This document shows positions 5,205 to 61,705 of a DNA stretch of 64,000 nt, piece after piece. The stretch's first letter is position 1, and each line of letters starts with the position of its first letter. The notes beneath the pieces were generated by a model, which saw only the letters and a list, made by a program, of their open reading frames with translations, searched no databases and was not told the origin of the DNA. This DNA is from a virus. The DNA lies in IMG/VR virus record IMGVR_UViG_3300029394_000152; one strand, 5' to 3'. The translations under genes were made by a program, and so were the position numbers.

Positions 5205-5924
5205 ATGGCAGAGAATAAACGGCACAAGGGACATCGCCAGCGGATGCGGGAGCGGGTGCAGAGCTACGGGCTGGACAGTCTGGCCGAGCACGAGGCGCTG
5301 GAATATGTGCTTTACCTGACCAACGCCCAAAGGGACACCAACGGCATCGCCCACGACCTGATCGATCGGTTCGGGGATTTTGCGGCGGTGCTGGAGGCCA
5401 GTGAGGAGGAACTGTGCACCGTGGAGGGCGTAGGCCCCTCTACTGCCCGGATGCTGCATCTGCTGCCCCAGATCAGCCGGTACTATGGCCGCAGCCGCAC
5501 CAGCACCACCCGCTGCATCAAGACCACCGAGCAGATGGGCAGCTATCTGATGGCAAAGTTTGCGTGGTCGGACTACGAGCGCGCCATGCTGGTCAGCCTG
5601 GACAGCCGCAAGCGGGTGCGCGCCGCCGTCTGGCTGCGGGAGGGCACCTCCGACCGGGTCAGTCTGGATATCAAGAACGTGGTGGCTGCCGCCATCAAGG
5701 GCGGTACGGATGCCGTGGTGCTCTGCCACAACCACCCCAACGGGGTGGCGCTGCCCTCGCTGGAGGACATGGACGCTACCGGCAGCATTGCCCGGGCACT
5801 GGGGCTGGTGAATGTGCACCTGCTGGACCACTTTATCCTGACCGACACCGAGTATTTTTCCATGCGGGACGCCAACCGCCTGCCCATCTACGATTTCAAG
5901 ACCGGCACGCTGTTCTGGCCGTAA
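5205..5924 (+). CDS. RadC-like JAB/MPN domain protein
   Basis: helix-hairpin-helix N-terminus and JAMM motif HNHPNG; AAAGGAG RBS 7 nt upstream of the ATG. Confidence 0.8.
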   Translation: MAENKRHKGHRQRMRERVQSYGLDSLAEHEALEYVLYLTNAQRDTNGIAHDLIDRFGDFAAVLEASEEELCTVEGVGPSTARMLHLLPQISRYYGRSRTSTTRCIKTTEQMGSYLMAKFAWSDYERAMLVSLDSRKRVRAAVWLREGTSDRVSLDIKNVVAAAIKGGTDAVVLCHNHPNGVALPSLEDMDATGSIARALGLVNVHLLDHFILTDTEYFSMRDANRLPIYDFKTGTLFWP

Positions 5925-6017
5925 AACAAAAAACTGTTTACATTATAAAATGTGCGTGCTATAATACAACTTGAAGCAACAACGGATTGTGGTTATACGC
6001 ACGGAAGGGAGAAAACG

Positions 6018-8075
6018 ATGGCAGAGGAAAAATTTGAACTGGTGTCGAACTATGCCCCCACTGGCGACCAGCCTCAGGCGATCGCGCAGCTGGTGGAGGG
6101 GGTGCAGCGGGGTGACCGCTGCCAGACCCTGCTGGGCGTGACCGGCAGCGGCAAAACCTTTACCATGGCCAACGTCATTGCCCAGTGCAACCGCCCCACG
6201 CTGGTGCTGGCGCACAACAAAACGCTGGCGGCGCAGCTGTGTACCGAGTTCCGCTCGTTTTTCCCCAACAATGCGGTGGAGTACTTCGTCAGCTACTACG
6301 ACTACTACCAGCCGGAGGCCTACATTCCCAGCACCGATACCTATATTGAAAAGGACAGCGCTATCAACGACGAGATCGACCGCCTGCGCCATTCGGCTAC
6401 GGCGGCACTTTCCGAGCGGCGGGACGTCATTATTGTGGCCTCGGTGTCCTGCATCTACTCGCTGGGCGACCCCATCGACTACCGCAGCATGGTCATCAGT
6501 CTGCGCCCCGGGATGCAGATGGAGCGGGATGAGTTGTGCAAAAAGCTGGTCACCCTGCAATACGAGCGCAACGACGTGAATTTTGTGCGCAATAAGTTCC
6601 GGGTACATGGCGACACGGTGGACATTTATCTGGCTTATATGAGCGAGCTTGCCATCCGGGTGGAGTTTTTCGGGGACGAGATCGACCGCATTACCGAGTT
6701 CAACCCCTTGACCGGCTCCAAGCAGAACGTGGTCAAGCACGTTGCTATCTTCCCGGCCAGCCACTATATCGTCAGCGCGGAAAAAAAGGCCGCTGCGCTG
6801 GAAAAGATCCGCGCCGAGTGCGACGCACAGGTCAAGCAGTTCACCGCCGAGGGCAAGCTGATCGAAGCGCAGCGCATTGCCCAGCGCACCAACTACGATA
6901 TCGAGATGCTGAATGAGGTGGGTATCTGCAAGGGCATCGAAAACTATTCGGCGGTGCTGTCCGGCCGCGCGCCGGGCAGTATGCCCACCACCTTGCTGGA
7001 TTATTTCCCGGAGGATTTTCTGCTCTTCGTGGACGAGAGCCACGTCACCCTGCCGCAGGTGCGCGCCATGTACGGCGGCGACTACGCCCGCAAAAAAACG
7101 CTGGTGGAGTATGGTTTCCGTCTGCCGTCCGCCTTCGATAACCGCCCCCTGAAATTTGAGGAGGTGGAGTCCAAACTCAACCAGATGATCTTTGTCTCCG
7201 CCACCCCCGGCGAGTACGAGCGCCGGAACAGTTCGCAGGTGGCGCAGCAGGTCATCCGTCCCACGGGTCTTTTGGACCCGGTCATCTCGGTGCGCCCGGT
7301 GGAAGGGCAGGTGGTGGATCTGCTGGGCGAGATCAATGCCCGCATCCAGCGGCAGGAGCGGGTGCTTGTGACCACCCTGACCAAAAAGATGGCCGAGGAT
7401 CTCACCGATTACCTCACCGAGCAGGGGATCAAGGTCAAGTATATGCACCACGAGGTGGATACCTTCGAGCGCATGGAGATCATCAAGGATCTGCGTTTGG
7501 GCAGCATCGACGTGGTGGTGGGCATCAACCTGCTGCGCGAGGGGCTGGATCTGCCGGAGGTGAGCCTTGTGGCCATTCTGGATGCCGACAAGGAGGGCTT
7601 TCTGCGCAGCGAGACCAGCCTGATCCAGACCATCGGCCGCGCTGCCCGCAATGCGGAGGGCATGGTCATCATGTACGCCGATGTGGTGACCGACAGTATG
7701 GAGCGCGCCATCACCGAGACCGAGCGCCGCCGCGCCATTCAGATGGCCTATAATGAGGAACACGGCATCGTGCCCAAGACCATCGTCAAGGCCATTGCGG
7801 ACAGCATCGAGATCAGCGATAAGGCCGAAAACGCCAAGCGCAACACCCGCCGCATGGGCAAGATGGAGCGGGAAGCTGCCATTGAGCGCCTGACCCGGGA
7901 GATGAAGGAAGCCGCGAAGCTGCTGGAATTTGAGCACGCAGCCTTCCTGCGGGATCAGATCGACCGCCTGCGCCGTGGCGAGAACCCCACCGTGGACTCC
8001 GCCGCCGAGACCGAACGCAAACAGAACCATGCACAGACACAACGAAAAGGGAGAAAATACCTTGGCAAACGATAA
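6018..8075 (+). CDS. uvrB: excinuclease ABC subunit B
   Basis: GVTGSGKT Walker A, helicase motifs and a UvrB/C-interaction C-terminus; start at the MAEEKF ATG with a GGGAG RBS. Confidence 0.95.
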
Positions 8076-11085: not shown

Positions 11086-11163
11086 CCGGGTGTAGCGCAG
11101 TTTTGGTAGCGCGCTTGAATGGGGTTCAAGAGGCCGTGAGTTCGATTCTCGCCACTCGGACCA
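11086..11163 (+). tRNA. tRNA-Pro (GGG)
   Basis: cloverleaf with 7-bp acceptor, C1:G72 and A73 typical of bacterial tRNA-Pro, anticodon loop AUGGGGU, T-loop TTCGATT, encoded CCA. Confidence 0.8.
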
Positions 11164-12670
11164 GACGCATCCCAGACGAACTTTCTTTTTGTAAGTTTGT
11201 CTGGGATGTTTTTTTGTTTTTGTTAACGGTTTCGTCCGAAACATTAAAATTGATAACCAGTTCACGGTCGCTAACTACCATACTTGTTACAAAAGTGTTA
11301 ACAAGACGGCGACCATACTCCGGTGTGCGCTCGGACGGCTCCACCAAGAACTGTTCCAGCAGGAAAAGGTACTGTTCTTTGGTGAATACAACCGGCTTCT
11401 CCTTTTCCAGAGCAGAGAGCTGGAAGTTCAGAGTGCGCTCCTGTTCGCTCAGATCGTCCAGACGGGCGCACAGCTGCGCATTGGCGGTGCCGTTTTCGAT
11501 GGCGTCCAGAATGTTCTTACTACGGCGGCGGACATCGGCAAGGCTCTGTTCGATGGCTACGCGCTCGGCGTTTGGTTTTTCCGCATCAGCCTTTTGCACC
11601 TCGACCATAGCTTCGGCCAGCGCTTCCATGGCTTCCGGCTGCAAGAGGTGATCCGAGATGGACTGCATGACCTTTCCTTCCAGATCGTCCTTCGGGATGT
11701 TCCGCAGGTGGCAGTTCTTGTTGGGACAGGTGTAGTAGCGGTAGACCTCGCCGGTGGCGCTGTGGCCGCTCATGCCGCGCATGAGGGAACCGCAGGAGCA
11801 GTAGAGCTTGCCGGACAGGATATAGTCCGCTTTCGGTTCATTCTTTGCCTTGAGCTGACGGTTCAGTTTCAACATGGTTTGTGCCCTCTCCCAAAGTTCG
11901 TCGTCGATAATGGCCGGAATGGCCCCTTCAATGCGCACATCATACGATTTGCTGACGTACACGCCGCGATAGGCTTCGTTCTGGATGATCCGGGGAATGC
12001 TGCTCTTGTTGAAGGGGTTGCCCTGACTGGTACGCAGACCTTTGGCGTTGAGCTTATCTACAATAGAGGTGGCGGATTCCCCGGCGGCGTAATGCTCAAA
12101 GATGAAGCGGACGGTGGGAGCGGTCTTTTCATCAATGACAAACCGTTTGTGTTCGTCCGTTTTCAGGCCAAGGGCACGGCATCGGCTGATGGCCTGCCCC
12201 TTGAGGGCACTTTCTCTCATGCCGCGGCGCATCTTCTCGGCCAGCTCGGCAGAGTAGTATTCGGCCAGCGCTTCCATCACGCCCTCAATGATGATACCTT
12301 CCGCACCGGCGATATTGGATTCTGCGGCATAAACGATCTCAACGCCGTTGTCACGCAGGCGTTTCTTGTACACGGCAGAATCATAGCGGTTCCGGGCGAA
12401 GCGGTCTGTTTTCCAGCAAATCACCATATCGAATGCGCCCTTGTCGCTGTCAGTAATCATTTGCTGGAACGCTGCACGATCATCGGTCTTGCCGCTGATG
12501 TGGCGATCCACATATTCTTTCTGAATGGTCATGTTGTGCAGGCGGGCGTAGGTCTCGCAGTCCCGGCGCTGGCCCTCAATGGACTGCTCGGTCTGCCCGC
12601 TGCCGCCGCTGTATCTGTAATAGGCGACCAGCCGCACTTCGCCGCCCTTGTTGAATTTTCTTTTTGCCAT
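11126..12670 (-). CDS. large serine recombinase (prophage integrase)
   Basis: N-terminal resolvase catalytic domain (YYRYSGGSGQ...) with a long zinc-ribbon/coiled-coil C-terminal recombinase domain; last 13 codons overlap the tRNA-Pro 3' end. Confidence 0.9.
   Translation of the reverse strand: MAKRKFNKGGEVRLVAYYRYSGGSGQTEQSIEGQRRDCETYARLHNMTIQKEYVDRHISGKTDDRAAFQQMITDSDKGAFDMVICWKTDRFARNRYDSAVYKKRLRDNGVEIVYAAESNIAGAEGIIIEGVMEALAEYYSAELAEKMRRGMRESALKGQAISRCRALGLKTDEHKRFVIDEKTAPTVRFIFEHYAAGESATSIVDKLNAKGLRTSQGNPFNKSSIPRIIQNEAYRGVYVSKSYDVRIEGAIPAIIDDELWERAQTMLKLNRQLKAKNEPKADYILSGKLYCSCGSLMRGMSGHSATGEVYRYYTCPNKNCHLRNIPKDDLEGKVMQSISDHLLQPEAMEALAEAMVEVQKADAEKPNAERVAIEQSLADVRRRSKNILDAIENGTANAQLCARLDDLSEQERTLNFQLSALEKEKPVVFTKEQYLFLLEQFLVEPSERTPEYGRRLVNTFVTSMVVSDRELVINFNVSDETVNKNKKTSQTNLQKESSSGMRLVRVARIELTAS
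11167..11218 (+). terminator. rho-independent terminator after the tRNA
   Basis: perfect 10-bp inverted repeat catcccagac/gtctgggatg followed by TTTTTTTGTTTTTG; lies inside the 3' coding end of the recombinase on the other strand. Confidence 0.6.
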
Positions 12671-15914: not shown

Positions 15915-16135
15915 CACAGGGCGGTTCCAATGGCGGGAGGAACGAAAACAAAACCCGCTGCCAGAAATACAGGCAGAAAGGCGGGGGAGTGTGAGCAGTG
16001 AATTTACGCCCTTTGTGGCGGCGTCCATGCGGGAAATGCTTTTGGATATGCTCGAAAAGCACCCGGAGATTTTCGACAGACCGACAAGATACCCGGAGGG
16101 CCGGGCAGAATTTTTGAAACAGAAGGAGCCGAACC

Positions 16136-16702
16136 ATGGATAACGAAAAACTGTATGAGGACATGAAGCCGAAAGAAAAGTTTGAGGTTCTCTGGGCGGA
16201 GAGCGGCCTTGCTGATCGTCCGGGAGCGGAAAACCTTTGGCAGCAGATGGTGGCTTTGGGGTTCTTTGAAAAGCCTGCAAGCATTAAGCACCATTCCAAC
16301 CATCCCGGCGGTCTGTGTGAGCACTCGGTTTGTGTGGCAGAGGCGGCAATGGAACTGTGCAGAACGAATCACGCTTTCAAGAAATGTCACCGGAATGAAG
16401 TTCTTGCGGCAGCGCTTCTGCACGACTATTGCAAGGTGGGCAAGTACCGCGATAAAGGCAAAGGTGAGTACGAATACTTTGACGCCGGTCTGGTGGGCCA
16501 TGGAGAAGGAAGCGTCATCATGGCACAGCAGTACATCAGGCTGACGGCGCGGGAGATCGTGGCGATTCGCTGGCACATGGGAGCATACAGCGGGTCGCAG
16601 GACTGGGATACGCTCAGTGCTGTTTATGACCGCTACCCGGAAGCCCTGTGTCTGCACTTCGCGGATATGATCGCTACACACTACGACGAAGTTCATTTCT
16701 GA
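16136..16702 (+). CDS. HD-domain phosphohydrolase
   Basis: H...HD motif (HHSNHPGG...LLHDYCK); GAAGGAG RBS. Confidence 0.7.
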   Translation: MDNEKLYEDMKPKEKFEVLWAESGLADRPGAENLWQQMVALGFFEKPASIKHHSNHPGGLCEHSVCVAEAAMELCRTNHAFKKCHRNEVLAAALLHDYCKVGKYRDKGKGEYEYFDAGLVGHGEGSVIMAQQYIRLTAREIVAIRWHMGAYSGSQDWDTLSAVYDRYPEALCLHFADMIATHYDEVHF

Positions 16703-16886
16703 GGATGTAAATGAAGGTACATAACAGAAGTCCCACCGAAAAAGCCCTGCACAAAAATGAACAGTGCAGGCATACGTTCGAGATCACCCACAAGCGGTGT
16801 GCGCCGTGCAGTGGCTATGATACGAACTGTGAACGTTACGAAAAAACCAAGGGTGCTGCTGATACAAAAACATCTAAGGTATGAAT

Positions 16887-16925
16887 GAGCCGCCACGCAC
16901 CGCGTCAGCGCGGCGGCTTTTATAT
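16887..16925 (+). terminator. rho-independent terminator
   Basis: gccgcc...ggcggc stem followed by TTTTAT. Confidence 0.5.
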
Positions 16926-16930
16926 GGCGC

Positions 16931-17355
16931 GGGGCTGAACCTTGAAACGACGCAGGGGGAAACCACCAGCGGGGCCACACCCCGTCCGCGCCGCTTTGCA
17001 GCAGGTATTCATGGAAGCCGGTGCGTTTGTCCATAATTTGACGCACCGACAGGGGCAGAGGGTGCCGTATGGCGGCGTTTCTCCCGTGTAAGCTGGTGCA
17101 AGACCACGCTGCCTTTCTGCCAAGCTACGCCCGCATGACGGTGCGGAAACCGATTTGGGCGTGCACGCCGCATGAGCGAAGAAATGCCTTGTCCGATCCA
17201 CCCAAGCCAAAGGTGGAAGGTCTGCTTGACCAAGACCGGCCCGCCGCGCTGCTCTCTTGCGCGGTGGGTTCTGATATGCGGGTGCAGCAAGGAAGTTGTC
17301 CGCCGTCCTGATCCCCCATCGGTAGGCAAGCCGGTTCGATTCCGGCCACCCGTGC
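16931..17355 (+). ncRNA. tmRNA (ssrA)-like RNA with an aberrant 3' end
   Basis: 5' GGGGCUGAACCUUGAAACGACGCAGGG resembles the tmRNA acceptor plus D-analog; GGGGGA/UCCCCC could form a P2-like helix; perfect T-arm GCCGG-UUCGAUU-CCGGC at the 3' side; the following CACCCGUGCAAG cannot pair with the 5' GGGGCUG and lacks CCA; no coding ORF. Confidence 0.35.
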
Positions 17356-17390
17356 AAGAACTATGAAAAAATCAATAGGAGGTAAAAAGA

Positions 17391-17591
17391 GTGCTTTACG
17401 TCGATGCAATAAGGATTTTGGAGAAAATTGCACAGGCGAGATTCCTTCACGCGACAATGCCGAAACAAGAAGAAATCGAAGAAGCGATTAAGGTTGTGGC
17501 AAGTCAGGTAACGGTTCAGGCTTGTCCGGGCTTCGCGCTTCATGCCGCACTGTGGTGGATGGCAATTAAATCTAAAGAGGCAGAAGAATGA
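17391..17591 (+). CDS. hypothetical protein
   Basis: GTG start with an AGGAGGT RBS; 66 aa. Confidence 0.35.
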   Translation: MLYVDAIRILEKIAQARFLHATMPKQEEIEEAIKVVASQVTVQACPGFALHAALWWMAIKSKEAEE

Positions 17592-18999
17592 TTCATTTGG
17601 GCGACATTACTAAAATCCATGGAGACCAGATTGAACCCGTGGACTGCATCACGTTTGGTTCGCCTTGTCAGGATTTGTCCATGGCAGGCTTGAGAGCTGG
17701 CCTTGAGGGGAAAAATTCCGGTCTGTTCACAGAAGCCATAAGAGTTATTGTAGAAATGAGGGTTGCCACAAATGGAATGTATCCAGCTTTCGCTATCTGG
17801 GAAAATGTTCCCGGAGCTTTCAGCTCAAACGGCGGAGAAGATTTCAGAACCGTGCTGGAAAAACTTGCCCACGCGGCACAACCAGACGTTTCAATTCCTC
17901 GACCTGCGGGGGGGGGCGATGGTGCAAGGCCGGAGCAATCATCGGAAACGGCTGGTCTCTGGCATGGCGGTTGCTCAACGCTGAACGTTGGGGAGTGCCC
18001 CAGCGTAGAAAGCGTATCGCAGTTGTCGCAGATTTTAGAGGTCAATGTGCCGCAGAGATACTTTTTGAGCGCACGGGCCTGTCAGGGAATCCTGACAAGA
18101 GCATCCCGACGTGGCAAAGCGTTACCGGATTTACTCAAAACTGCCCTGCTGGACATGATCGAGTGGTGGCAGGGGAGGCAGCCTACACCCTGAAAATCCG
18201 TTCGGGATGTGCAGGAGGCGGGAAAGGCGCACTGGTGCAGACAGAAAAGACGGGAACGCTCTCGACGCTTCAAGACCAGACCCTTTTCCAGCCAATCGTC
18301 TTTGACGCTCGTGGAAATGGCAACGGTAAGACAGTTCCGACCATTACCGGAGATCATGAGAGCCGCGTCACAGACTATACGGCTATTGCGGTCGATCTGT
18401 ACAACGGAGCTGTTACCGGAAGCAAGGCGGCAGCCTTGAGTTGCAAGAATACCGGGACGACAGCGGGGCCGCAGGTTGCTGAAAGAAAAACCTATAGCGA
18501 GCAGACTTTCTCTACATACAAAGAAAGCGACAGCAGTGCAACACTGAAAGCGAAAACGGGAAATATCGAAAACGGTGGGGAATGCCTTGTGGCGGAACGT
18601 GTCGTGCGCTGGATCGTCCGAAGATTGACCCCGACGGAATGTGAGCGCCTGCAGGGATACCCGGACGGATGGACAGACATCGGGGAATGGACGGACACCA
18701 AAGGGAAAAAGCATAAACCGGCAGATACGCCGCGCTATAAGGCACTGGGAAACAGCATTGCCCTTCCGCAGTGGTTCTGGATTGCCCAGAAGATGCGGCC
18801 ATACCTGAAAGATAAGCCAACACTGGGAAGCCTGTTTGATGGAATTGGCGGTTTCCCGCTTGTGTGGGAGACGGCATATGGAGCAGGTACAGCAGTGTGG
18901 GCGTCTGAAATTGAAGAATTTCCAATTGCAGTAACAAAAAGGTGGTTTGGAAATGACACGGAAAATGAAAGCAATTCTGGTGCTGTTCTTCGCGGCTGA
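17588..18999 (+). pseudogene. C5-cytosine DNA methyltransferase, frameshifted at a G9 tract and with permuted motif order
   Basis: frame A carries GDITKI, PCQ (motif IV) and ENVPG (motif VI) up to RPAGGG; frame B carries GRWCKAGAIIGNGWSLAWR, QRR (VIII), RLTPTECERLQGYPDGW (IX), GNSIALP (X), then motifs I-II (LFDGIGGF, ASEIEEF) at the C-terminus; ten G's would join the two frames. Confidence 0.7.
17908..17916. repeat. homopolymeric G9 tract inside the methyltransferase coding region
   Basis: cctgc-ggggggggg-cgatgg; the frame changes exactly here. Confidence 0.8.
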
Positions 19000-29964: not shown

Positions 29965-30070
29965 GGTTCATAGCTCCTTTTCGTTTTCGTGATGTTCCCG
30001 ACATTTATGCCGGGAAGATGGGGCGGGGCCGCTTTGAATCGGTGCGGCCCTGCTGGGGTGTCCGCTTTTA

Positions 30071-30991
30071 TTATTCGTTTTCGTTGCCGTCCAGAAACTC
30101 CATGACACGGTGCGCTGCATATTTGGCGTTTGCGGTAAGCTGGCGCTGCCAAGCGCCCTGACTGGGTGCCCACCGGAAACCGTTCTCTTTGAGCATGGCG
30201 CGGGTTTCGTCGTCCGGCTTTCCGGGAAAGATGAATTGCACGCGCATGATTTCGTTGTTCTCACGGTAGGTGTAGCCGTCGTGCTGATCTTCAACGGGGC
30301 CGGATGCAGCGGAGGCTTGCGCTTTGTCGAGTTCGTCAAGGCGGGTCTGAATCCGCTTGATCTTGCCGCGGATACTGGTCAACTCAAAATCGTCGTAGGG
30401 CTTGCGGTACAGGCTCATTGAAAAGGCGTCCGGGCTGGTGAGGGCATCGGCTGCCGCGTCGCTCATGTTGGAATAGCCGCGCAAGGTTTTGTGCTTCCGG
30501 TAATAGGCATTGGCACCCTTGCAGTATTCGAGCAGGTCTTGCTCTTTGTTCAGCTGATCCGTGAGCAGTTCGCGGGCGTGGGGGTCGGCCAGATCAACGG
30601 GGCCGGTGCCAACCGCCTTGATTTTCGTCAAGATGGCTTCGATTTCTTCATATTCGTGCCAAAGCGTATCCTCGCGGGCGTTCTGCTTCTGCTTCTTTCG
30701 CACCGGGAAGTTACCAGCACCGCACACCAGCACAGAGGGGCAGCTTGCACCGTTCCGGTTGTGGTCGTCCGTCCACTGTGCAAGGCGGCGGGCGTAGCTG
30801 TCAAGCAGCGCGTCCAGCTTTTCGTGATAGTATGGGCTGACTTTCTGCTTCTTTTCTTCGACCAGAGCGGCGGCATTGTCCACGCTGGCACGGTATTCTC
30901 TGGTTGCATAGCCGTCCGGATAGGTGCTCATGCTGCGCATATTGTGGGAAGCACGGGCCAGATTTTCGTTGATGGGATAGTATGTTGTCAT
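30071..30991 (-). CDS. hypothetical protein (cassette array member)
   Basis: 306 aa from the MTTYYPINEN start; leader cacgaaacgcgaaaaggagc; GC-rich hairpin abuts the stop. Confidence 0.5.
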   Translation of the reverse strand: MTTYYPINENLARASHNMRSMSTYPDGYATREYRASVDNAAALVEEKKQKVSPYYHEKLDALLDSYARRLAQWTDDHNRNGASCPSVLVCGAGNFPVRKKQKQNAREDTLWHEYEEIEAILTKIKAVGTGPVDLADPHARELLTDQLNKEQDLLEYCKGANAYYRKHKTLRGYSNMSDAAADALTSPDAFSMSLYRKPYDDFELTSIRGKIKRIQTRLDELDKAQASAASGPVEDQHDGYTYRENNEIMRVQFIFPGKPDDETRAMLKENGFRWAPSQGAWQRQLTANAKYAAHRVMEFLDGNENE

Positions 30992-31083
30992 AATTCGTTT
31001 GCTCCTTTTCGCGTTTCGTGTTGTGCCTTTCGGCTGGGATCGGGTCGCTTTACGGTGCGGCCCGTCAAGGTATCCGGCGCGGA

Positions 31084-31569
31084 TCAGATGCACCACGGCG
31101 CGGCGTTGTATGCTGCATTCTGCTGGGCGGCGAATGCGTACAAGTGGTTTGAAGTCTTTACAAGCGCTTTCTGTAAATTCGTGTCTGCCGTGGCCTGTTC
31201 TTCGCACTGGTAAATGTAGCAGTCAAGCAGCTTCAGGAATTTGAAGAAATCAGCATCGAGAAAATAATGCTCGTTGTAGTCCAGACGGTGCAGCAGGTGC
31301 GGCACATTGTCCGGAATGGCTGGCACTTCGTCGGTTTCGTCCGGCTCTGCCTTATAGCGCCCTTCATACGCGGCTTCGTTGTGCCGGTACAGAACGGGGT
31401 AGATTCGACGGTCGTCATACAGAAAATCGTGCGGGTATTTGCAAGCGCCCAGAGCGTCGCGCAATTCGTCGGCGGCGGAAAGCTGGCACATTTCGGATTG
31501 ATTGAGCAGGTACGACAGACCGTGCGCAACGGTGGCGATGTGGGCGGGGGAAAGCATCATGCAAGACAT
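31084..31569 (-). CDS. hypothetical protein (cassette array member)
   Basis: 161 aa; AGGAGG RBS. Confidence 0.45.
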   Translation of the reverse strand: MSCMMLSPAHIATVAHGLSYLLNQSEMCQLSAADELRDALGACKYPHDFLYDDRRIYPVLYRHNEAAYEGRYKAEPDETDEVPAIPDNVPHLLHRLDYNEHYFLDADFFKFLKLLDCYIYQCEEQATADTNLQKALVKTSNHLYAFAAQQNAAYNAAPWCI

Positions 31570-31689
31570 AAATTCAAGCCTCCTGTTTTCGTTTTTCGTG
31601 TTTCGTGACGATCCCCCGGCGGGGTGCCGGTGGGAAGTGGGGCGGGGCCGCTTTGAACGGTGCGGCCCTGCTGGGGTCTCCGTTTCGTG

Positions 31690-32631
31690 TTATGCAAAGC
31701 AAAGCTGCTGCACGGTGGGAACCATTTCGGGGGTCTTTGCCTTTTCCAGATTGTCAAGGGCCATTACAAACGCGGCGGCTTCGCGGTCGCTGCTGATAAG
31801 GTCGCCCATGTATTTATTGAACTTCTGGACGGTGGCGGCAAACTGGGAATCGTTGGCGCTCATTTCGTCGAACTTGTCCACGGCGTCGTAAAACTCGCCG
31901 CTCTCGTGGTCGTCGTCGGTCTGGTACAGGCGGGAATAGTTCTTGACGAAAGCGTTTTTCAGTTCTTCCATGTCCGGCCCGGTGGGTTTCGTTTCGGCTT
32001 TCTTTGCCGGGGCCTTTTTGGCGGTGCGCTTCGTGGCCTTTTTCGTGGGCAGCGGATCGACGTGCACCAGTTCCGGCAACTCGTGGTGTTCTTCGGTGAT
32101 GATCGGGGCGGTGGCTTCGGCCTTTGCCTTTTCGGCGGCGGCTTTCGCTGCTTTCCGTTCGGCTGCCAGCTTCTTGTTATACTCGATGATTGCAGCGGTC
32201 GATCCAAACCGGCCAGCCGGGGCGGGCTTGCTGCTTTCAACCTGTAAGCAACTGAACAGGTGCGATTTCGTGGGGTAGTAATGCGGATCGGGGGCCGCTT
32301 CCTTGCCCTCTGCCGCTGCTTTTTCTCGCTGCTCTTTGCTGGGCTTCGTGGTGTACTTCCAGAGGTAGCAGCAAACAAGATGCTTTTCACCCTTTTTGAC
32401 GCTCTTACCCTCTTTCTTCCAGTGGTCGAATGTGTGCAGCTCGTCGGCTGCAAGCATGATTTCGACATCGGCCACGGTGGCGGGCTGTTCGTTGCCGTTC
32501 TCGTCGGTGGTTTTGCAAGCGGCGGCAATGGCGGCGATCTCGTCCGGGGTGTGGTGCGCGGTGGCGATGGCGTGCAGGGTGGCAGGGTCAAGCCGGGCGG
32601 CTTCGTTGCGGATGATCTGATTGTTCGTCAT
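31690..32631 (-). CDS. ArdC-N (DUF1738)-like ssDNA-binding domain protein
   Basis: motif LHTFDHWKKEGKSVKKGEKHLV resembles the ArdC_N TF.QW..G..V.KGEKG signature; Ala/Lys-rich linker and a C-terminal domain. Confidence 0.35.
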   Translation of the reverse strand: MTNNQIIRNEAARLDPATLHAIATAHHTPDEIAAIAAACKTTDENGNEQPATVADVEIMLAADELHTFDHWKKEGKSVKKGEKHLVCCYLWKYTTKPSKEQREKAAAEGKEAAPDPHYYPTKSHLFSCLQVESSKPAPAGRFGSTAAIIEYNKKLAAERKAAKAAAEKAKAEATAPIITEEHHELPELVHVDPLPTKKATKRTAKKAPAKKAETKPTGPDMEELKNAFVKNYSRLYQTDDDHESGEFYDAVDKFDEMSANDSQFAATVQKFNKYMGDLISSDREAAAFVMALDNLEKAKTPEMVPTVQQLCFA

Positions 32632-32735
32632 GGTAAATACTTCCTTTCAATTTTTGTTGTGGTTCTTCCCGGCGGGGCCGGGTGGATGGGATCGGGTCGC
32701 TTTTCGGTGCGGCCCGTCAAGGTATCCGGCGGGGA

Positions 32736-32948
32736 TCATGCGAGAAGTTCAGCGGCGGCGGTTTGATAGTCGGGAAACTCGTAGAACGTGCGCTGTTCGT
32801 CGTTCGTGTTCTCGTTCGTGATGCGGGCGACGATCCGCCGCCCCGTGTTCATGTCCCACCCCTCAAGCCGGAACCCGGCGGACAACAGGCGGCGGGCGGC
32901 GTGGTTTTCGTTGCGGCATTCGTTGCGGATTTCTTCAAGGGTTTTCAT
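32736..32948 (-). CDS. hypothetical small protein (cassette array member)
   Basis: 70 aa; AAAGGAG RBS. Confidence 0.4.
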   Translation of the reverse strand: MKTLEEIRNECRNENHAARRLLSAGFRLEGWDMNTGRRIVARITNENTNDEQRTFYEFPDYQTAAAELLA

Positions 32949-32966
32949 GTTGTGCGCTCCTTTCGT

Positions 32967-33308
32967 TCAATCGTCGATCCCGTCGCAATCGTGACAATAC
33001 AGGGCATCAATAACGCGGTCGTCGCTGAAGTCGTCCGGGGTTCCGTTAGCATCGACCACAAGATCGATCCGGTCATTGATCCGCAATTCGGTTTCGTTGT
33101 CCACGATGAAAAACCAGTCGTCACCGTCCAGCGCGTCACTGCACCAGACTTCAATCTGGTTTTCGTTGGTGGCGGTCATGCCTTGCACAATGGCCGGGGC
33201 GATATACCGCCCCAAAGGGCCGACTTTGTAGGGACAGGCGGCAGCGGCGCGGGGTGCGCCGGACAGCAGCGCGGCGGCAAGTGCGGCGGCGGTCAAAATT
33301 CGTTTCAT
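32967..33308 (-). CDS. secreted Asp-rich small protein (signal peptide)
   Basis: MKRILTAAALAAALLSGAPRAAAA signal sequence followed by a D-rich region. Confidence 0.45.
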   Translation of the reverse strand: MKRILTAAALAAALLSGAPRAAAACPYKVGPLGRYIAPAIVQGMTATNENQIEVWCSDALDGDDWFFIVDNETELRINDRIDLVVDANGTPDDFSDDRVIDALYCHDCDGIDD

Positions 33309-33426
33309 GGTTGTTTCTCCTTTTCGTTTCGTGGTGTGGCTTTTCGTGCTTTTCCCCGGCTATTGTCGGGGCGTGGGATCGGGTCGCTTTTCGTGGTGCG
33401 GCCCGTCAAGGTATCCGGGGCGGCGT

Positions 33427-33831
33427 TCATGCCGGAATGTTGTAAATCTCGTTGAAGATGTCCAGCGCGTCGAGATCGGCGGCTTTCTGTCGTGCTGCAT
33501 TCACCGCGCCGCGGTCGTCGTGGCCGTTGAAGTGGTACGCTTCAATAAAGGCGTTGCGGATCAGATCGGCGGTGTGCTGGTGCTCCTGCAGCGCTTCCCA
33601 TTCGGCCCGGTCACGGATCAAAATTGTACAAGTCCATGCGCAAGAGCTGAAAGCCTGCAGAACGTCAACGTGAAACGATTTGCACCGGTTCAGCGCGGCG
33701 GTGATTTGGTCGCGCTCCTTGCGATCCATCGGAACGATGGAATAGGCGGGAATGTACCAGCCAGAAACGGGGGAGATGTTCCACCCGTGCCGGGCGGCGA
33801 TCTGGTTTACTTTCTTGTCAAATGCGGTCAT
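33427..33831 (-). CDS. hypothetical protein (cassette array member)
   Basis: 134 aa from the MTAFDKK start; AAAGGAG RBS. Confidence 0.45.
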   Translation of the reverse strand: MTAFDKKVNQIAARHGWNISPVSGWYIPAYSIVPMDRKERDQITAALNRCKSFHVDVLQAFSSCAWTCTILIRDRAEWEALQEHQHTADLIRNAFIEAYHFNGHDDRGAVNAARQKAADLDALDIFNEIYNIPA

Positions 33832-34031
33832 GTTCTCGATCTCCTTTTGATTTTGGTTTTGACCCGGCGGAATGCCGGACCCCATGAGCGCCCGCCCCGT
33901 TTGGGGCGGCTGGACTTGCACCAGCGGCGGCGGATGCCGTCGGCCTTGCGGGGCGGGCTTGACTTCACTTCCTTTCGGTGGTAAAATCAGATTGCTTGAA
34001 AAAGTGCTTGTTCATGCGAACAAGTAGGCTG

Positions 34032-34172: not shown

Positions 34173-34308
34173 AACCCTGTACCGTGTCGCTCGCTGTGGC
34201 ACTACTCTAGCACGGTACAGGGTTGATTGTCAAGCCCTATACCGTGCTTTCTGCGTTTTGCACAAAACCCTATACCGTGCTTTGTGCAAATTGACACTGT
34301 ACAGGGTT
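34173..34308. promoter_or_regulatory. operator cluster: five 14-bp CCCT(G/A)TACCGTG sites in direct and inverted orientation
   Basis: AACCCTGTACCGTG, CACGGTACAGGGTT, AGCCCTATACCGTG, AACCCTATACCGTG and CACTGTACAGGGTT between the divergent array and the RHH gene. Confidence 0.55.
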
Positions 34309-34356
34309 GGGCGAAAATGCTATATTTTATATATAAAAATAAACAGGGGTAATATT

Positions 34357-34602
34357 ATGGCTGTATCAGCAAGAAAAAGACTGAATAACGACAAATACAA
34401 CGCAAAATGCACGCAAATAAACCTGAAACCGTTGACACCGGAAGCAAATGCAATAAAAGCCGCGGCAAAAGCGTCTGGGCAAAGCATACAGGGATATATT
34501 TTACAGGCCGTGCGGGAACGTATGGCAAAAGAGGGCCAGCCGTTGACGCTGGACGACTTGCCGGGGGCTGATTCCGTGGGCGGCGATTCCGTGAAACCGT
34601 GA
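34357..34602 (+). CDS. ribbon-helix-helix (CopG/Arc-like) regulator
   Basis: 81 aa; the TQINLKPLTPEANAIKAAAKASGQSIQGYILQAV region suggests an RHH beta-strand/helix signature. Confidence 0.5.
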   Translation: MAVSARKRLNNDKYNAKCTQINLKPLTPEANAIKAAAKASGQSIQGYILQAVRERMAKEGQPLTLDDLPGADSVGGDSVKP

Positions 34603-34789
34603 AAAGCGGGGAAGAAGGGGGACTATAGGGGGTTACTGGGGCGGCATATAGCCTAGTTAACCCTTACCACTGCAGCGATATGCCGTTAAGTGAAGAATCT
34701 GACCCCTTCGGCAAACAGCAAAAACAGCCCTGCACCGGGGCGACAACAGCAGCAGAAAAGGCCGGGACGACCGACGCACAACGCGCCGC

Positions 34790-35215
34790 CGCCCCGGCCT
34801 TTTTTCTTTTTGCCCGCTATGCCGGGCCGCTCACACTGCACCGCCTGCAGCAGCCAGCGCCCGCCGCGCACCGGCTGCACCGGGCATTCCGCCGCCGCCC
34901 TGCCTGCTGCATACCATGCCAGCGCCGCCCGCCTGCCCTATGCCAGCATACAGCAGACCGCCGCGCCCTACTGCACCGCCTGCACACTGCCAGCCATGCA
35001 GCAGCCAGCACCGCCCGCCGCCTTGCCGCGCCTGCCAGATCGCCGCCGCGCCCGGCCTGCTTTGGGGCGGATCGCTGGCCCGCTGGCCCCGCCCGCCTGC
35101 CGGATCGCCGCCGCGCTGGCGCTGCCCGGCCCGCCGCGCCGCCTCTTGCAATGACCCCGCGCCCGCCGCCCGGCGCCGGGCCGATGACCACGGCCCGCCC
35201 GCCCCGCGCCCGTAG
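34790..35215. repeat. about 78% GC low-complexity repeat-rich non-coding tract upstream of terS (candidate pac/cos region)
   Basis: GCCGCC/CCGCC-rich; repeated caccgcctgca...cagcagccagc blocks about 130 bp apart; only mutually overlapping spurious ORFs. Confidence 0.4.
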
Positions 35216-48208: not shown

Positions 48209-51200
48209 GTGGCAAAAAATCAAACCCTAGAGCTTTCTATTTTGATCGGCGGTCACGTTGATAACTCGCTGACGCAGGCTGTAAAGTCTGCGAATACTCA
48301 GCTCAGCAGTATGGCGAACGGCGCATCGAAACTGGCAGCGAATATCGCAAAAGTAACGGTGGGCATAGCCAGCGGCATTACAGCGGGGCTGGTAGATGCA
48401 ACAAAAGAAGCAGTTGCATTTGAAAGCGAAATGCTTGATGTGACGAAGTACGTTGGCGGTCTGACGGACGCGAACGGAAAGGTCAAAACGGACGCTTATG
48501 CGGAAATGTCGAAAGACATTCTTGACTTGAGCACACAAATTCCGTACACCGCCAAAGAGCTGACACGTCTGGCAGCTGCGGCTGGTCAGTCCGGAAAGAG
48601 CATGGATGACCTAATAAGCGGCGGGTTTCTAAAGGACGTTGCCGAAATGGGCACGGCCATGGATATTTCTGCGGATCAGGCAGGCGACTGGGCAGCAAAG
48701 TGGGAAGTTGCATTCAACATGAACCACGATCAGGTCATGGAGCTGGCAGACCAGATTAACTATCTGGGTGCCCACTACGCAACGACCGCCGCTGAAATTG
48801 CCCAGACCGTAAACGACACCGGCTCTCTGGGTCAAATCGCTGGCATGGATGTTCAGAGCACGGCAGCGCTTTCTACAGCACTGCTGGCAATGGGCGTTGA
48901 TTCTGGTAAAGTGGCAACATCCATCCGCCGGATGTATACGAACCTTTCTATGGGTTCAAAAGCTACAGATGCACAGTCTGCGGCTTTTGAACAGCTGGGA
49001 TTTACCGCGGAACAGTTTGCAAAGGATATGCAAAAAGACGCCCCGGCAGCATTGAAAAGTTTGTTTACCGCTATCGGTACTCAGCCGAAAGACAAGCAAG
49101 TGGGCTATCTGAAAACTCTGCTCGGTCAGTGGGCCATTGAGAGTGGCGCAAAACTAACCGGCAATCTTGACTTGTTTGTGAAAACGCTGGACGACGTAGG
49201 CGATGCTTCTAAGTATAACGGCAGTATGTATAAAGAGTTTATGCTGAAATGCGAAACCTCTGAATCTGTATTGACGATGCTTGGGAGCGCATGGCGGGCC
49301 GTCCGCATTGAGGTTGGAAATAATTTCCTTCCGGTGCTGAAAGATGTAGCCGGGTTTGGCATCGAAAAGCTGAATGACCTCCGCGCCGCTCTGCCGGATA
49401 TTGCAGAACGTGTAAGGCAGGTAATTGAGTATCTGCTGAATAATGGCGATAAGGTAGCTGCGACCATCGCGGGTATCGGCACGGCATGGGCAGGAATGCG
49501 GTTTGCACCGCAAATCCTGCAGGTGGTATCCAGCGCGACGAAGTTTGCAAGCGGGGCGGCAAGCCCTGTGGGGCTTGTACAGAAGGGCGTGTCTGGTGCA
49601 GGAAAAGCTGGCAATCTGTGGCAGGCTGCAAAACTTGGAACACAGCTGGCAAACAGCGCTGTTCCGGCGGGCAGCAATCCTAGCTTCGGGCAGAGAGTGC
49701 AGAACACCATACTTGGTAGCGTCCTTGGAATGCAAAACAGCAAAAAGCTGTTTGGAGCAAAGACACCTGCTGGGATGGCAAAGGCAACGAGTGCGCTGTT
49801 TGGCAGCATTCAGCAGGCACAGGCTTCCGGCGGAATAATCGGACTGTTGAAAGGCAGTTCGATAGGGCAATACGGAGCCAGAGTTGCAAGGTCTGCAAAA
49901 AATCTGGCGGGGACAGACTTTATTCAGAACACGGTCGGCGTTGGAAAGTGGATCGGCCAAAAAGTTGCCGGTACACAACTTGGCGGCTTTGTAGGGAACA
50001 TGGGCCAAAAGGCTATGGGCTTTGGACAAGGATTGCTGGGCGGAGCAAAAAACATTGCAGGAACGGCAATTGGCGGCGTAAAAAATCTGGCAGGCCGCGC
50101 GGCATCTACTAAAGCTGGACAATTTGCCTTAAAGGTTGGCGGGGGAATTGCGAAAGGAACAGGGGACACGTTCAAGTTCCTTGGTTCTGGACTGAGCCTA
50201 GCCAACACGGCGGTAGGCCCGATAGCCGGTAAATTGGGCGGTGCATTTATGGGATTGCTCGGCACCTTCGGCCCGGTGATTACCGGAATCGGTGGAATCA
50301 TCGCAGTGGTCAGTCTGCTGGGAGATCACTTTGAGGACATCCGCCAGATCGTCGGGAACGTGTTCGGCGAAAAGGGACTGGCAATGTTTGATGGATTTAC
50401 GAGTAAAATCCACGATATTGCAGGCAACGTCCGAGATTCGGTGAGCAATGCATTCTCTTTGGAAAACCTGCAAAACATCCAGCAGAGCTTGAGCGGAAAG
50501 AGTATTTTCGGTATCGACGACTTGGGAACCACCTTCGGGGCAGTGATACCGATTATCGAATCGGTGAAAGGGCTGATTGGACAGATCGTAGACCTCGGAG
50601 TGAATCATATTAAGCCGCTGCTGGCTGATATTATGAGCTTCGCTGTAAACGAATTGTTCCCCGCAGTGTCGCCGCTGATAAGCATGATTATCAGTCTGGT
50701 TGGCACAACCCTGATAAACGCAATCAAGCTCGTCGTCGATGTGATCCACGGACTACTGCCGGTGATTGAACCGGTTATTCAGGGCATCGTCGGGTTGATA
50801 AAGGGCATTGTATCGGTGACGATTACGGTTGCGAATGCAATCATCGGCACGTTGAACAAATTGTCTTTTACGGTGCCTGATTGGGTGCCCGCCCTCGGTG
50901 GAAAACAATTCGGCTTCAACCTGAAAGAAGTTGCAATGCCTGCCTTTGCGAACGGCGGTTTTACTCACGGTGTCAGCATTGCAGGCGAAGCTGGAACAGA
51001 GGCGGTTATCAGCTTCAAGCCTAGTGTTCACGATAGCAACGTCGAAAACTGGGTGCGTGCAGGCCGGATGCTGGGAGTGTCTGGCGAGGATGCAACTCGT
51101 GCGGCGGGTGTACGGTATTTTGCAAACGGCGGTTTCACCGACGGAAGCAAGGAAAAACTGGACAACCTGATTGATTTCTCCAAAGCATACGGTAAGTACG

Positions 51201-60132: not shown

Positions 60133-60555
60133 ATGAATATTATCGCACTCGTAACCCACCTGAAACAGGTCGCACAGGCAGCAAAGGCGTATACTGATTC
60201 GCTGATAAGCGAAACGGCCAAAGAAACTATTAAAGCGATTAAAGAGATGGATCGTGCAAAGGTCGATAAGATTTCCGCCGTTGCTGTTACGATCAGCACG
60301 GACGGCTGGGTGGAAGATGAAACGTGGGAGGAATACCCCATGCGTTATGACATCACTGCCGCAGATGTGACGGCGACCGATCGCGCAGACATCATCTTGT
60401 CACCGAACAGTTTGACCGCCGCGATGGACTGCAGTGTCTGTCAGACCTGCGAAACGCAGACCGGGAAAATTTGTATCTGGGCGAAGAAAGCCCCGGCGGA
60501 AGCGCTGACTGCTGAGTACCAGATCATTCAGGGCGAAAAGCCAAAGGAGGACTAA
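60133..60555 (+). CDS. hypothetical protein
   Basis: 140 aa. Confidence 0.4.
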   Translation: MNIIALVTHLKQVAQAAKAYTDSLISETAKETIKAIKEMDRAKVDKISAVAVTISTDGWVEDETWEEYPMRYDITAADVTATDRADIILSPNSLTAAMDCSVCQTCETQTGKICIWAKKAPAEALTAEYQIIQGEKPKED

Positions 60556-60558
60556 CAC

Positions 60559-60951
60559 ATGGCATATGGAAACGTGAATGTCGCCGTGCCGGGCGTGTCG
60601 AACGATGAATCCAGCTATCTGAAAACAGAACAGGCCGGTGCCCCCGGCGGCGTGGCAACGCTGGATGCGGATGGTAAGCTGTCTGAATCGCAGCGTCCGG
60701 CGGTGGACGCATACACCAAGGCTGAGACCGACCAGCGCATCAGCGCAGCCGTGGACGCTCACAACGGTGCGGAGAACGCCCACAGCGACATCCGTGCCAG
60801 TGTGGCAGCGATGAATGCCAGCATTAAGGCAATCGAGTTGAAGTTCGGCACGAACGTCACCAAGAATCCTTTTTCTGCCACGTTCGGCAGCCTTGACGGC
60901 CTGACCGTCACCGGCGTGTGGAACGCAGATCAGGCAAGGGTGGAGTTCTGA
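60559..60951 (+). CDS. hypothetical protein
   Basis: 130 aa. Confidence 0.4.
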   Translation: MAYGNVNVAVPGVSNDESSYLKTEQAGAPGGVATLDADGKLSESQRPAVDAYTKAETDQRISAAVDAHNGAENAHSDIRASVAAMNASIKAIELKFGTNVTKNPFSATFGSLDGLTVTGVWNADQARVEF

Positions 60952-60952
60952 T

Positions 60953-61543
60953 ATGACTGAACAACCGTTTCTGGTTGGCAGCAAAGCGCGGGAGCTTCTG
61001 AGATATACACAGAGGGCGACCCGCATCGTTTCGGATGACATCAGCCGTAGCGATGCCCGAAAAGTATTTCAGAAAGCCGCTGCGCTTGAGGACATCCGGG
61101 AAATCAAGCAGGTCTGCACCACCGCTGTCCATGCTCTCGATACGAGGGAGAAGGAGGGCTTCACGAAAAGCACCTTCAACCTCTACGGCAGGGACATCAG
61201 GGAGATAGCCAAGAAGATTCTGCTGGATGCCCATGCGGCCAACAACGTGAACTTCGCCACGGAGTACGACAAGCGGATTGAAAAGATCGGTGAGGTCGTG
61301 GACGGCTGTTCTCTGCTGCTGGAATATCTGACCCTCTGCACGGAGGATGGTATCATCAGCACCAAGAAAGCCGGTATCTGGACAAAGAAGATCACGGATG
61401 TAAAATACCCGGCCATGAAGTGGCTCAAGTCTGAACGTGGCCGGGCAGAAAATCTCCGGCAGGAAGCAGAGAAGAAACGGCTTGAAATGCTTGTCAAAGC
61501 ACTTCGGGCCGTCTTTGCCCAGCAGGAGCAGAAAACGGCATAA
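60953..61543 (+). CDS. helical protein upstream of the TR (candidate DGR accessory protein, Avd-like by position)
   Basis: 196-aa helical protein ending 43 nt before the TR; no recognisable Avd motif. Confidence 0.25.
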   Translation: MTEQPFLVGSKARELLRYTQRATRIVSDDISRSDARKVFQKAAALEDIREIKQVCTTAVHALDTREKEGFTKSTFNLYGRDIREIAKKILLDAHAANNVNFATEYDKRIEKIGEVVDGCSLLLEYLTLCTEDGIISTKKAGIWTKKITDVKYPAMKWLKSERGRAENLRQEAEKKRLEMLVKALRAVFAQQEQKTA

Positions 61544-61585
61544 CAGGAAACTGTTTTGCAATAGGGGTACGGTTTATATTCTGAC

Positions 61586-61705
61586 GCTGCCATTTGGTGG
61601 CTGCGCTCTCCGAACACCAACAATAACAACAACGTCTGGAACGTCAACACCGATGGCTCCAACAACAACAACTGGTACAACAACTCCTATGGTGTTCGCC
61701 CCGCT
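61586..61705 (+). repeat. DGR template repeat (TR)
   Basis: non-coding 120 nt, AAC-rich, near-identical to VR1 and VR2 except at adenines; followed by a distinct 3' end (IMH*-like) ctgatggaacc. Confidence 0.8.

Follow-up and report, generated by a model that had tools for sequence, protein, structure and literature searches.

Few large RNAs have many conserved helices; the examples are ribosomal RNAs, RNase P, group I and II introns, OLE, GOLLD and ROOL. Every known one turned out to be biochemically remarkable. Some longer RNAs end in a tRNA-like part. The 3' module of MALAT1 (mascRNA) and that of MEN-beta serve in end formation and are recognised by RNase P, RNase Z and the CCA-adding enzyme; the 3' tRNA-like structures of plant RNA viruses, whose acceptor arms are pseudoknotted, are also recognised by aminoacyl-tRNA synthetases. 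GOLLD and ROOL are often near tRNA islands, and tRNAs sometimes lie within the GOLLD linker (PMC12286853). YrlA (Y RNA-like) RNAs are non-coding, some of them phage-encoded, and imitate, in one domain, the acceptor, T and D arms of tRNA (PMC4201824). Here, we analyse positions 16,887-17,355 of a stretch of 64,000 nucleotides (nt) from IMG/VR virus record IMGVR_UViG_3300029394_000152 (hereafter the window), a locus that a first-pass annotation had read as a tmRNA-like (transfer-messenger RNA-like) gene. Our results indicate with high confidence that it is a conserved, heavily folded non-coding RNA of about 435 nt that is carried by Faecalibacterium-type phages and is neither a tmRNA nor an attachment (att) site. 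The RNA is probably encoded by the + strand from 16925 to 17354/17360, within the early operon of a Faecalibacterium prophage of the Toutatis type.

Faecalibacterium is among the most abundant and health-associated human gut bacteria, and its temperate phages are active and little understood. The RNA is without annotation in three GenBank phage records that carry it, including FP_Toutatis and Lelie, and our literature searches found no paper describing it. A survey of viral structured-RNA candidates, in which the motifs measure at most 151 nt, may include fragments of the RNA (PMC10690425).

Structure and conservation of the RNA

Three parts make up the RNA: at its 5' end a three-way domain, then a central core whose single-stranded boxes are invariant, and at its 3' end a cloverleaf-like module of the size of a tRNA. 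We retrieved 55 distinct full-length relatives that form 16 clusters, share 45-95% identity and measure 373-489 nt; all come from Faecalibacterium-type phages of the gut. A viral-contig search with the HD-domain protein encoded upstream found 30 loci, and one clade among them is no more than about 75% identical in the core. Further relatives came from two conserved DNA patterns searched in viral contigs, with the core block at 17170-17216 used as a pattern; one search pattern required the T loop, the CAAGAA tail and four C's in the 3' strand, and left the stem positions free. About 100 viral contigs carry the element, and its gene context is the same in all of them. Among 50,697 GenBank phage records, its only carriers are FP_Toutatis (two records), Lelie and one uncultured fragment. 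With one genome scanned for each prokaryotic species, seven loci were found, in Faecalibacterium or related Oscillospiraceae/Clostridiales assemblies; one 2-kilobase (kb) contig was binned as Barnesiella. A metagenome scan added about 50 further true loci, beside about 20 chance matches. Its records that name a source name the human gut, and it brought no more distant relatives and no new gene contexts.

The secondary structure was derived from a 27-sequence alignment (A2), for which the RNAalifold consensus comprises 111 pairs in 18 helices. Standard pairs are formed in 91.4% of the cells, compared with 36-46% when the 3' partners are slid by 1-3 columns. Furthermore, 51 pairs are altered on both sides (12-22 in the slid controls), and the covariation score of 0.319, which falls to about 0.08 in the slid controls, was reached by none of 500 shuffles. 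An independent scan for antiparallel covarying runs recovers P1, H3, H5, H10, H11, H13, H15 and the acceptor stem. In the alignment of relatives, G-U combinations exceed A-C combinations by 287 to 84, a bias that holds for the + strand only; therefore, the RNA is read from that strand. No reading frame is conserved in 16885-17390, which extends from the stop of the upstream gene for a protein of 57 amino acids (57-aa; stop at 16884) to the next start (17391). Among relatives, the longest stretch without a stop ranges from 57 to 116 codons, and the length differences between clades are not multiples of three. The elements of the 5' domain and of the core, all on the + strand, are as follows.

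16925-16993, +: 5' three-way domain (P1, H2 and H3), supported by covariation; it holds the 'GGGGCUGAACC...' string
16925-16932 with 16986-16993, +: P1, 96.3% paired, with four of eight pairs altered on both sides; its 5' strand includes GGCGCGG
16933-16940 with 16957-16964, +: H2, a clade-variable hairpin with stem CCUUG...CAGGG; seven of eight pairs altered on both sides
16969-16974 with 16980-16985, +: H3, conserved hairpin GCGGGG-CCACA-CCCCGU that abuts the 3' strand of P1
17008-17016, +: conserved single-stranded box UUCAUGGAA; CAUGRAAGC is invariant in the alignment
17017-17025 with 17042-17050, +: H5 hairpin, five pairs altered on both sides
17053-17168, +: central multi-helix domain, in which the H6-H8 arm spans 17053-17110
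17091-17097 with 17103-17110, +: H8, from the consensus structure
17126-17132 with 17157-17163, +: H10, four of seven pairs altered on both sides
17139-17142 with 17149-17152, +: H11, three of four pairs altered on both sides
17170-17178 with 17185-17192, +: H12, in the most conserved core (17170-17216); GAGCGAAGAAAUGCCUUGUCC at 17174-17194 consists of invariant columns
17198-17202 with 17212-17216, +: H13, a hairpin with the conserved loop CAAGCCAAA; four of five pairs altered on both sides
17219-17224 with 17232-17237, +: H14, of variable length, three pairs altered on both sides
17238-17249 with 17259-17270, +: H15, long and G+C-rich, six pairs altered on both sides

In P1, G-C is swapped to A-U and C-G to U-A in step with 16986-16993. 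The largest difference between clades lies in the central domain, since the clade C elements (373-376 nt) are without about 17062-17119, that is, the H6-H8 arm. Pairing at 17063-17112 is ambiguous, with GCGGC/GCUGC as an alternative, and the tips of H14 and H15 carry clade-specific insertions. Two other pairings were considered and left out of the model. A long-range pairing UGCCGU/ACGGUG, suggested by a first alignment of 11 sequences, was dropped because the wider alignment favours the competing hairpin H11. A pairing of the CAAGAA tail with UUCAUG (helix 4) was set aside since all its bases are invariant, which leaves no room for covariation.

The 3' part of the RNA is a tRNA-like module with the following elements.

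17278-17354, +: tRNA-like module, 77 nt, supported by covariation and by separate folding of clade representatives
17271-17277, +: AU-rich single-stranded leader CUGAUAU with U at position -1; it ends in AU in nearly all of 64 distinct variants
17277/17278-17284 with 17347-17353/17354, +: acceptor stem GCGGGUG/CACCCGU, 100% paired over the 27 sequences, three pairs altered on both sides
Within 17278-17354, +: small D-like hairpin with a conserved GG (17291-17292)
About 17300-17327, +: extended hairpin at the anticodon position, with a C-rich loop (CCCCC, 17313-17317)
17330-17334 with 17342-17346, +: T arm GCCGG-UUCGAUU-CCGGC, its stem 97% paired and directly abutting the 3' strand of the acceptor
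17354, +: discriminator G, which is A or G across the family
17355-17363, +: 3' tail CAAGAA, without CCA, and mosaic breakpoint; the sequence directly after the T arm reads CACCCGUGCAAG / CACCCGUGCAAGAA

Each of the 64 distinct variants forms a perfect acceptor stem of 7 base pairs (bp), with G-U allowed; its 5' strand is separated from the T stem by 42-59 nt, as in tRNAs. In all 64, this stem adjoins without a gap a T arm that has a 5-bp stem and a 7-nt loop. The acceptor stems of other clades read GUGGGUG/CGCCCAC, GCGGAUG/CGUCCGC, GCGGACG/CGUCCGU and GCGAGCG/CGUUCGC. Every relative also keeps the T arm, with compensatory changes in the stem (GUUGG/CCAAC, GUCGG/CCGAC, UCCGG/CCGGA, GCCAG/CUGGC), the loop UUCGAUU and an invariant closing G-C pair. 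When folded alone, the module takes a cloverleaf-like shape of 74-91 nt in 14 of 14 clade representatives. None has a 7-nt anticodon loop: the hairpin found there has 5-9 bp and a loop of 5 to about 14 nt, depending on the clade. The tail is CAARAN, and never CCA, in all variants retrieved without requiring the tail; the host tRNA-Pro encodes CCA. The leader is almost always AUAU followed by G, with U at -1, and the host tRNA-Pro shares a GAUAU leader. Hence, the module resembles a tRNA in its 'top half' only and is no tRNA for decoding. A tRNA gene is its probable origin, and relaxed ARAGORN searches call a tRNA-Gly(CCC), or a tRNA of undetermined type, in some clades. The two ends of the RNA resemble each other in layout: 16925-16993 and 17273-17360 share an AUAUG leader, a G-rich stem of 7-8 bp and a hairpin abutting the 3' strand, followed by G-C. 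Judging from this layout, the 5' domain may be a second, decayed tRNA-like unit that arose by an old duplication.

Gene neighbourhood and phage setting

Two features directly precede the RNA.

16711-16884, +: gene of a 57-aa Cys-rich protein (Zn57; C-X10-C-X2-C-X6-C), known from translation and the invariable upstream partner of the RNA
16889-16921, +: terminator-like G+C-rich hairpin (16889-16917) and UUUU, followed by AUAU and the first helix of the RNA

By tblastn, all 20 representative loci have the gene encoding Zn57 immediately before the RNA. In the body of the gene, third-position variation supports coding. The last codons, which encode AADTK (GCUGCUGAUACAAA), are fixed at the nucleotide level across clades, third positions included. 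This constraint at the RNA level overlaps the end of the Zn57 coding sequence; therefore, the functional RNA may start upstream of the terminator hairpin. The AADTK codons (window 16840-16884 region) can form the loop of a small hairpin. The Zn57 protein has no match in Pfam, PHROG or PADLOC, and a search among 5.8 billion proteins returned only close, near-identical relatives, none of them named.

The hairpin and its U tract are kept upstream of the RNA in all clades, with differing stem sequences, and precede it in 20 of 20 representative loci; a terminator scan picks up the inner part of the hairpin (16900-16913). A gene for an HD-domain protein is found upstream in about half of the loci. 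Since it is missing from the other loci and resembles the YhaM HD domain only weakly (E = 0.003), this protein was left out of the model. Downstream, a cytosine-5 DNA methylase (Dcm-type) usually follows, directly or after one small gene, but not in every locus. In the window, this methylase is split into open reading frames (ORFs) that overlap in different frames (17588-18193 and 17971-18999) and match the N- and C-terminal parts of the Pfam model. FP_Toutatis is annotated with two coding sequences at this place and Lelie with one shorter coding sequence. The split could be a frameshift, a pseudogene or a case of recoding.

The left end of the prophage is marked by two overlapping features.

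11086-11163: tRNA-Pro(GGG), found by ARAGORN, which encodes its CCA and has a GAUAU leader
11126-12670, minus: serine-recombinase gene, next to tRNA-Pro

The stretch is 98.5-99.8% identical to FP_Toutatis 5755-6275 and Lelie 34277-34797, which are internal parts of the two phage genomes (54,725 and 53,400 nt). Furthermore, the window is collinear from 11126 on with FP_Toutatis from its base 1 (offset 11,125). Hence, the prophage begins at the serine-recombinase gene beside tRNA-Pro and extends beyond the end of the window. The actual left prophage junction is the place where tRNA-Pro(GGG) overlaps, in its 3' part, with the end of the oppositely oriented serine-recombinase ORF. Spontaneous induction has been shown for the phage Lelie, which is packaged as one 53.4-kb genome with cohesive ends (PMC11792537). 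Its packaged ends lie away from the element. An att site would lie at the end of an integrated element and be split in the packaged genome; the element described here is internal and contiguous in FP_Toutatis, in Lelie and in many viral contigs.

The 3' end of the RNA coincides with a boundary between phages. Alignments of the window to five related phage contigs (L003, L007, L008, L018 and L019) end at 17360-17363, and homology to them resumes after 0.2-1.6 kb, with different genes in between. Therefore, the 3' end of the RNA is a mosaic joint between phage modules. In another contig (L015), the interior of the tRNA-like module alone (17285-17327) has been exchanged for the version of another clade. 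The first-pass annotation rightly placed the stretch inside a prophage, as its internal position in the FP_Toutatis and Lelie counterparts confirms. It had also suggested, as one of two readings, two tandem elements, the first a tRNA-Pro island at 11.1-16.9 kb; this region proves to be the lysogeny/early module of FP_Toutatis and belongs to one phage. The recombination site that it had placed near 17343-17355 corresponds to a real boundary, at 17360-17363. This joint is not an att or integrase site: since the stretch is internal to FP_Toutatis and Lelie and Lelie is packaged as one genome, it is a phage-phage mosaic.

Other regions of the window carry features of their own. By collinearity with FP_Toutatis 49347-50576, positions of about 60470-61700 correspond to an annotated 'retron-type' reverse transcriptase beside tail-fibre genes; diversity-generating retroelements have been described in the related phage Lelie (PMC11792537). 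Moreover, the minus strand carries five RAGATH-5 motifs (30012-30065, 31028-31077, 31631-31683, 32680-32729 and 33367-33418) and a twister-sister ribozyme (33875-33956), all above the Rfam gathering score, within 30012-33956. Each of them occupies a successive intergenic gap of a minus-strand operon that includes a primase gene, as if every junction of this operon were self-cleaving.

Proposed role and competing explanations

RNase P recognises the stack of the acceptor and T arms and favours U at -1, and RNase Z cuts precursors without CCA after the discriminator. We propose that the RNA would be made within the early polycistronic transcript, by read-through of the upstream hairpin, and that its tRNA-like module would be a handle for the tRNA-processing enzymes of the host. 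RNase P would cut between AUAU and G (17277/17278) and RNase Z past the discriminator (17354/17355), and CCA addition may follow. Such cleavage, much like that at the mascRNA element of MALAT1, would set and stabilise the ends of the RNA and part the flanking messages. The folded body, perhaps with the 57-aa protein bound, would then act in trans in infection or lysogeny.

Several observations weigh against this picture or parts of it. The processing mechanism is drawn from the shape of the module and its flanking bases only, and we give it slightly less than even odds. In almost all sequences, U(-1) can pair with the discriminator (A or G); the resulting 8-bp stem could shift or hinder RNase P cleavage. 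The conserved terminator hairpin directly upstream suggests limited or regulated transcription into the RNA. As to the folding, both strands were folded as single sequences, which was uninformative, the fold being no more stable than shuffles (z = -0.9 to -1.3); the structural evidence is comparative and does not come from fold energy. An end-to-end helix, discussed below, may give rise to a second conformer. Lastly, the invariance of the T loop, of parts of the acceptor strand and of the CAAGAA tail arises partly by construction among the pattern-retrieved relatives; loci found by routes other than the fixed pattern share the same features.

A more ambitious reading is speculative, and we give it a minor share of belief. 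The element would be a new class among the ornate RNAs of phages that probably forms a ribonucleoprotein with the 57-aa Cys-rich protein, and its tRNA-like end, covalently joined to it, would be CCA-tailed, perhaps charged, and would engage the translation or tRNA-handling machinery of the host. Alternatively, this end would anchor cargo to an RNA assembly like that of GOLLD or ROOL. The 5' domain would be a second, older tRNA-derived module. If this were true, the RNA could act as a decoy for tRNA-directed defence or as a ligand of the ribosome or of EF-Tu.

The RNA could also be a cis-acting leader (riboswitch-like, or acting by antitermination or translational control) for the downstream gene, often that of the cytosine-5 DNA methyltransferase. 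It does have a terminator on one side and the ribosome-binding site of the following gene on the other. A scan of 16000-18000 gave no sigma-70-type promoter, and no terminator-like site was found from the RNA to the ribosome-binding site and start (17391) of this gene. The methylase gene follows, moreover, in most loci. However, it is the upstream gene that stays constant, whereas the downstream gene differs by clade and the loss of homology coincides exactly with the RNA's 3' end. In addition, inspection of the sequences reveals no conserved pairing with the ribosome-binding sites downstream, which vary. A leader of this size, with 18 helices and a tRNA-shaped 3' module, would be atypical, and no riboswitch model matches. 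We therefore judge a leader function rather unlikely for the RNA.

The preferred reading treats body and module as one RNA. They could instead be two independent genes, with an unusual functional phage tRNA, for instance a derivative of tRNA-Gly(CCC), beside an unrelated RNA. The relaxed ARAGORN calls mentioned above, the length of the module and its tRNA-like acceptor and T arms are in keeping with this. On the other side, the loop at the anticodon position is not the standard one of 7 nt, ARAGORN with default settings calls a tRNA or tmRNA in none of 56 relatives, and the Rfam tRNA model (RF00005) is silent even in a search of 101 nt. Besides, module and upstream body are never apart among loci that contain both ends. 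Two separate genes are thus improbable.

Even less credit is due to the idea of a degenerate phage tmRNA-like RNA, alanine-charged and acting on the ribosome, whose acceptor would be formed by 5' GCGCGGG (16927-16933) and 3' CCCGUGC (17349-17355). The first-pass annotation had proposed a tmRNA-like gene from a 5' string read as acceptor plus D-analog, a perfect T arm, a following 3' strand said to be unpairable and to lack CCA, and a stretch free of coding sequence and of a tag reading frame. Much of what it saw is there. The string GGGGCUGAACCUUGAAACGACGCAGGG starts at 16931; the T arm (17330-17346) is beyond chance and shows compensatory changes across relatives; the stretch is non-coding and has no tag frame, its ORFs not being conserved and the tmRNA mode of ARAGORN being negative. 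Nevertheless, the string is the 5' strand of P1 followed by the variable hairpin H2. The strand after the T arm indeed has no CCA, but it can pair, CACCCGU (17347-17353) with GCGGGUG (17278-17284).

Neither covariance models nor ARAGORN recognise a tmRNA at this locus. In the whole window, ARAGORN finds tRNA-Pro (11086-11163), no other tRNA and no tmRNA, and in the region it finds no tmRNA at thresholds of 80%, 70% and 50%; intron-containing calls obtained in intron mode at low threshold were discarded as noise. At gathering score, Rfam 15 gives tRNA-Pro and six ribozyme motifs elsewhere in the window and nothing on the stretch. The Rfam tmRNA models, including the permuted ones, align with the 17-nt T arm only, at 10-12.4 bits compared with gathering scores of 47-84. 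This arm (17330-17346) aligns to the T arm of the beta_tmRNA and permuted tmRNA models and is the only part that matches models of the Rfam tRNA clan. Permissive scans used E values up to 10 on 1.3 kb and on the last 101 nt and up to 1 on three other clades. In these four clades, none of 4227 Rfam families matches beyond the alignment of the T arm. Weak matches to P6, sodF and Plastid-ycf2 were rejected, being on the opposite strand and far under threshold. Group I and II introns, RNase P RNA, riboswitches, GOLLD, ROOL, HEARO and Y RNA were likewise considered, and no model match supports any of them.

The end-to-end helix that this tmRNA-like RNA would need is 88.9% paired over the 27 sequences (16-65% in slid controls). 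At the third pair of this helix, 17 sequences have G-U and ten have G-C, the following base is A in all, and the T arm that adjoins it is genuine. But where this helix and the local ones conflict, the substitutions track the local ones. Alignment column 13, for instance, is A in ten sequences, where it pairs with U71 in P1 but mismatches C502, and columns 500 and 503 covary with 417 and 414. Covariation thus places both supposed acceptor strands in local helices, P1 and the acceptor stem, which are 96% and 100% paired, and the third pair of the local acceptor is G-C. With the end-to-end helix, moreover, two unpaired bases would come to separate the acceptor strand from the T stem. We regard this helix as a by-product of the likeness of the two 5' strands, which both follow AUAUG and both have a hairpin abutting their 3' strand; a minor alternative fold may exist.

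It is just as hard to maintain that the stretch acts as DNA (a replication origin or packaging site) or is a decayed protein gene. It is a long gene-free G+C-rich stretch in the early region of a phage, with long ORFs on both strands. However, these ORFs are not conserved between clades, the compensatory changes and the G-U bias on the + strand only are those of an RNA, and no iteron-type repeats are seen in the sequence. The replication protein and the cos/terminase region are located elsewhere in the FP_Toutatis annotation.

Phages often integrate into the 3' ends of tRNA or tmRNA genes, and a tRNA-type T arm does adjoin the point where the homology to related contigs ends; yet a host ssrA, or a phage or bacterial attachment site (attP/attB) relic, split by a second element so that 11.1-16.9 kb and the large prophage stand in tandem, can be dismissed because the stretch is internal to FP_Toutatis, with which the window is collinear from that phage's base 1, and to Lelie, packaged as one cos genome, because the integration site is tRNA-Pro beside the serine-recombinase gene, and because the context is constant in about 100 viral contigs.

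Comparison with known systems

The conserved phage RNA shares several traits with tmRNA: a canonical T arm, a large structured body on a tRNA-like part, a D region without a clear stem in some clades and, in the window, a 5' string that resembles the 5' end of tmRNA. It differs by the G-C third pair of its acceptor and by having no tag frame, CCA or model match. Moreover, because its acceptor is closed by a strand 70 nt upstream and not by the 5' end of the RNA, its body is a 5' extension, whereas that of tmRNA is inserted at the anticodon position. For annotation, this means that a T arm and a G-rich 5' string are insufficient for calling a tmRNA.

As in the mascRNA-type and plant-viral systems, a tRNA-shaped module stands at the 3' end of a much longer structured RNA. 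Those systems are eukaryotic or plant-viral, whereas the present RNA belongs to a DNA phage of a Firmicute. Its acceptor is a plain helix, in contrast to the pseudoknot of the plant viruses. Compared with YrlA, it is far larger and of another architecture, and it matched no Rfam family, YrlA included if represented there; no Ro60/Rsr gene was identified among the nearby proteins scanned.

The RNA appears to be a new family of large structured phage RNAs, to which GOLLD and ROOL are closest in kind. Like them, it is encoded by phages or prophages, is hundreds of nt long, has many helices supported by covariation and is linked to tRNA; this is a shared description and not evidence of homology. 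Neither Rfam model matches, with E up to 10 in the region of the window and up to 1 in three other clades. The present RNA is also smaller (373-489 nt), has a narrow host range and is always paired with the gene of a small Cys-rich protein. Furthermore, it has one built-in non-canonical tRNA-like module in place of neighbouring true tRNAs. These traits make the family a useful compact case (about 375-490 nt). A cultivable host-phage pair is at hand (Lelie in strain L2-61), the tRNA-shaped handle opens direct biochemical tests (RNase P, RNase Z, CCA addition and charging), and a candidate protein partner, the 57-aa protein, is encoded next to the RNA. Together, these properties could help to make testable the old question of why the ornate RNAs of phages, such as GOLLD and ROOL, travel with tRNAs.

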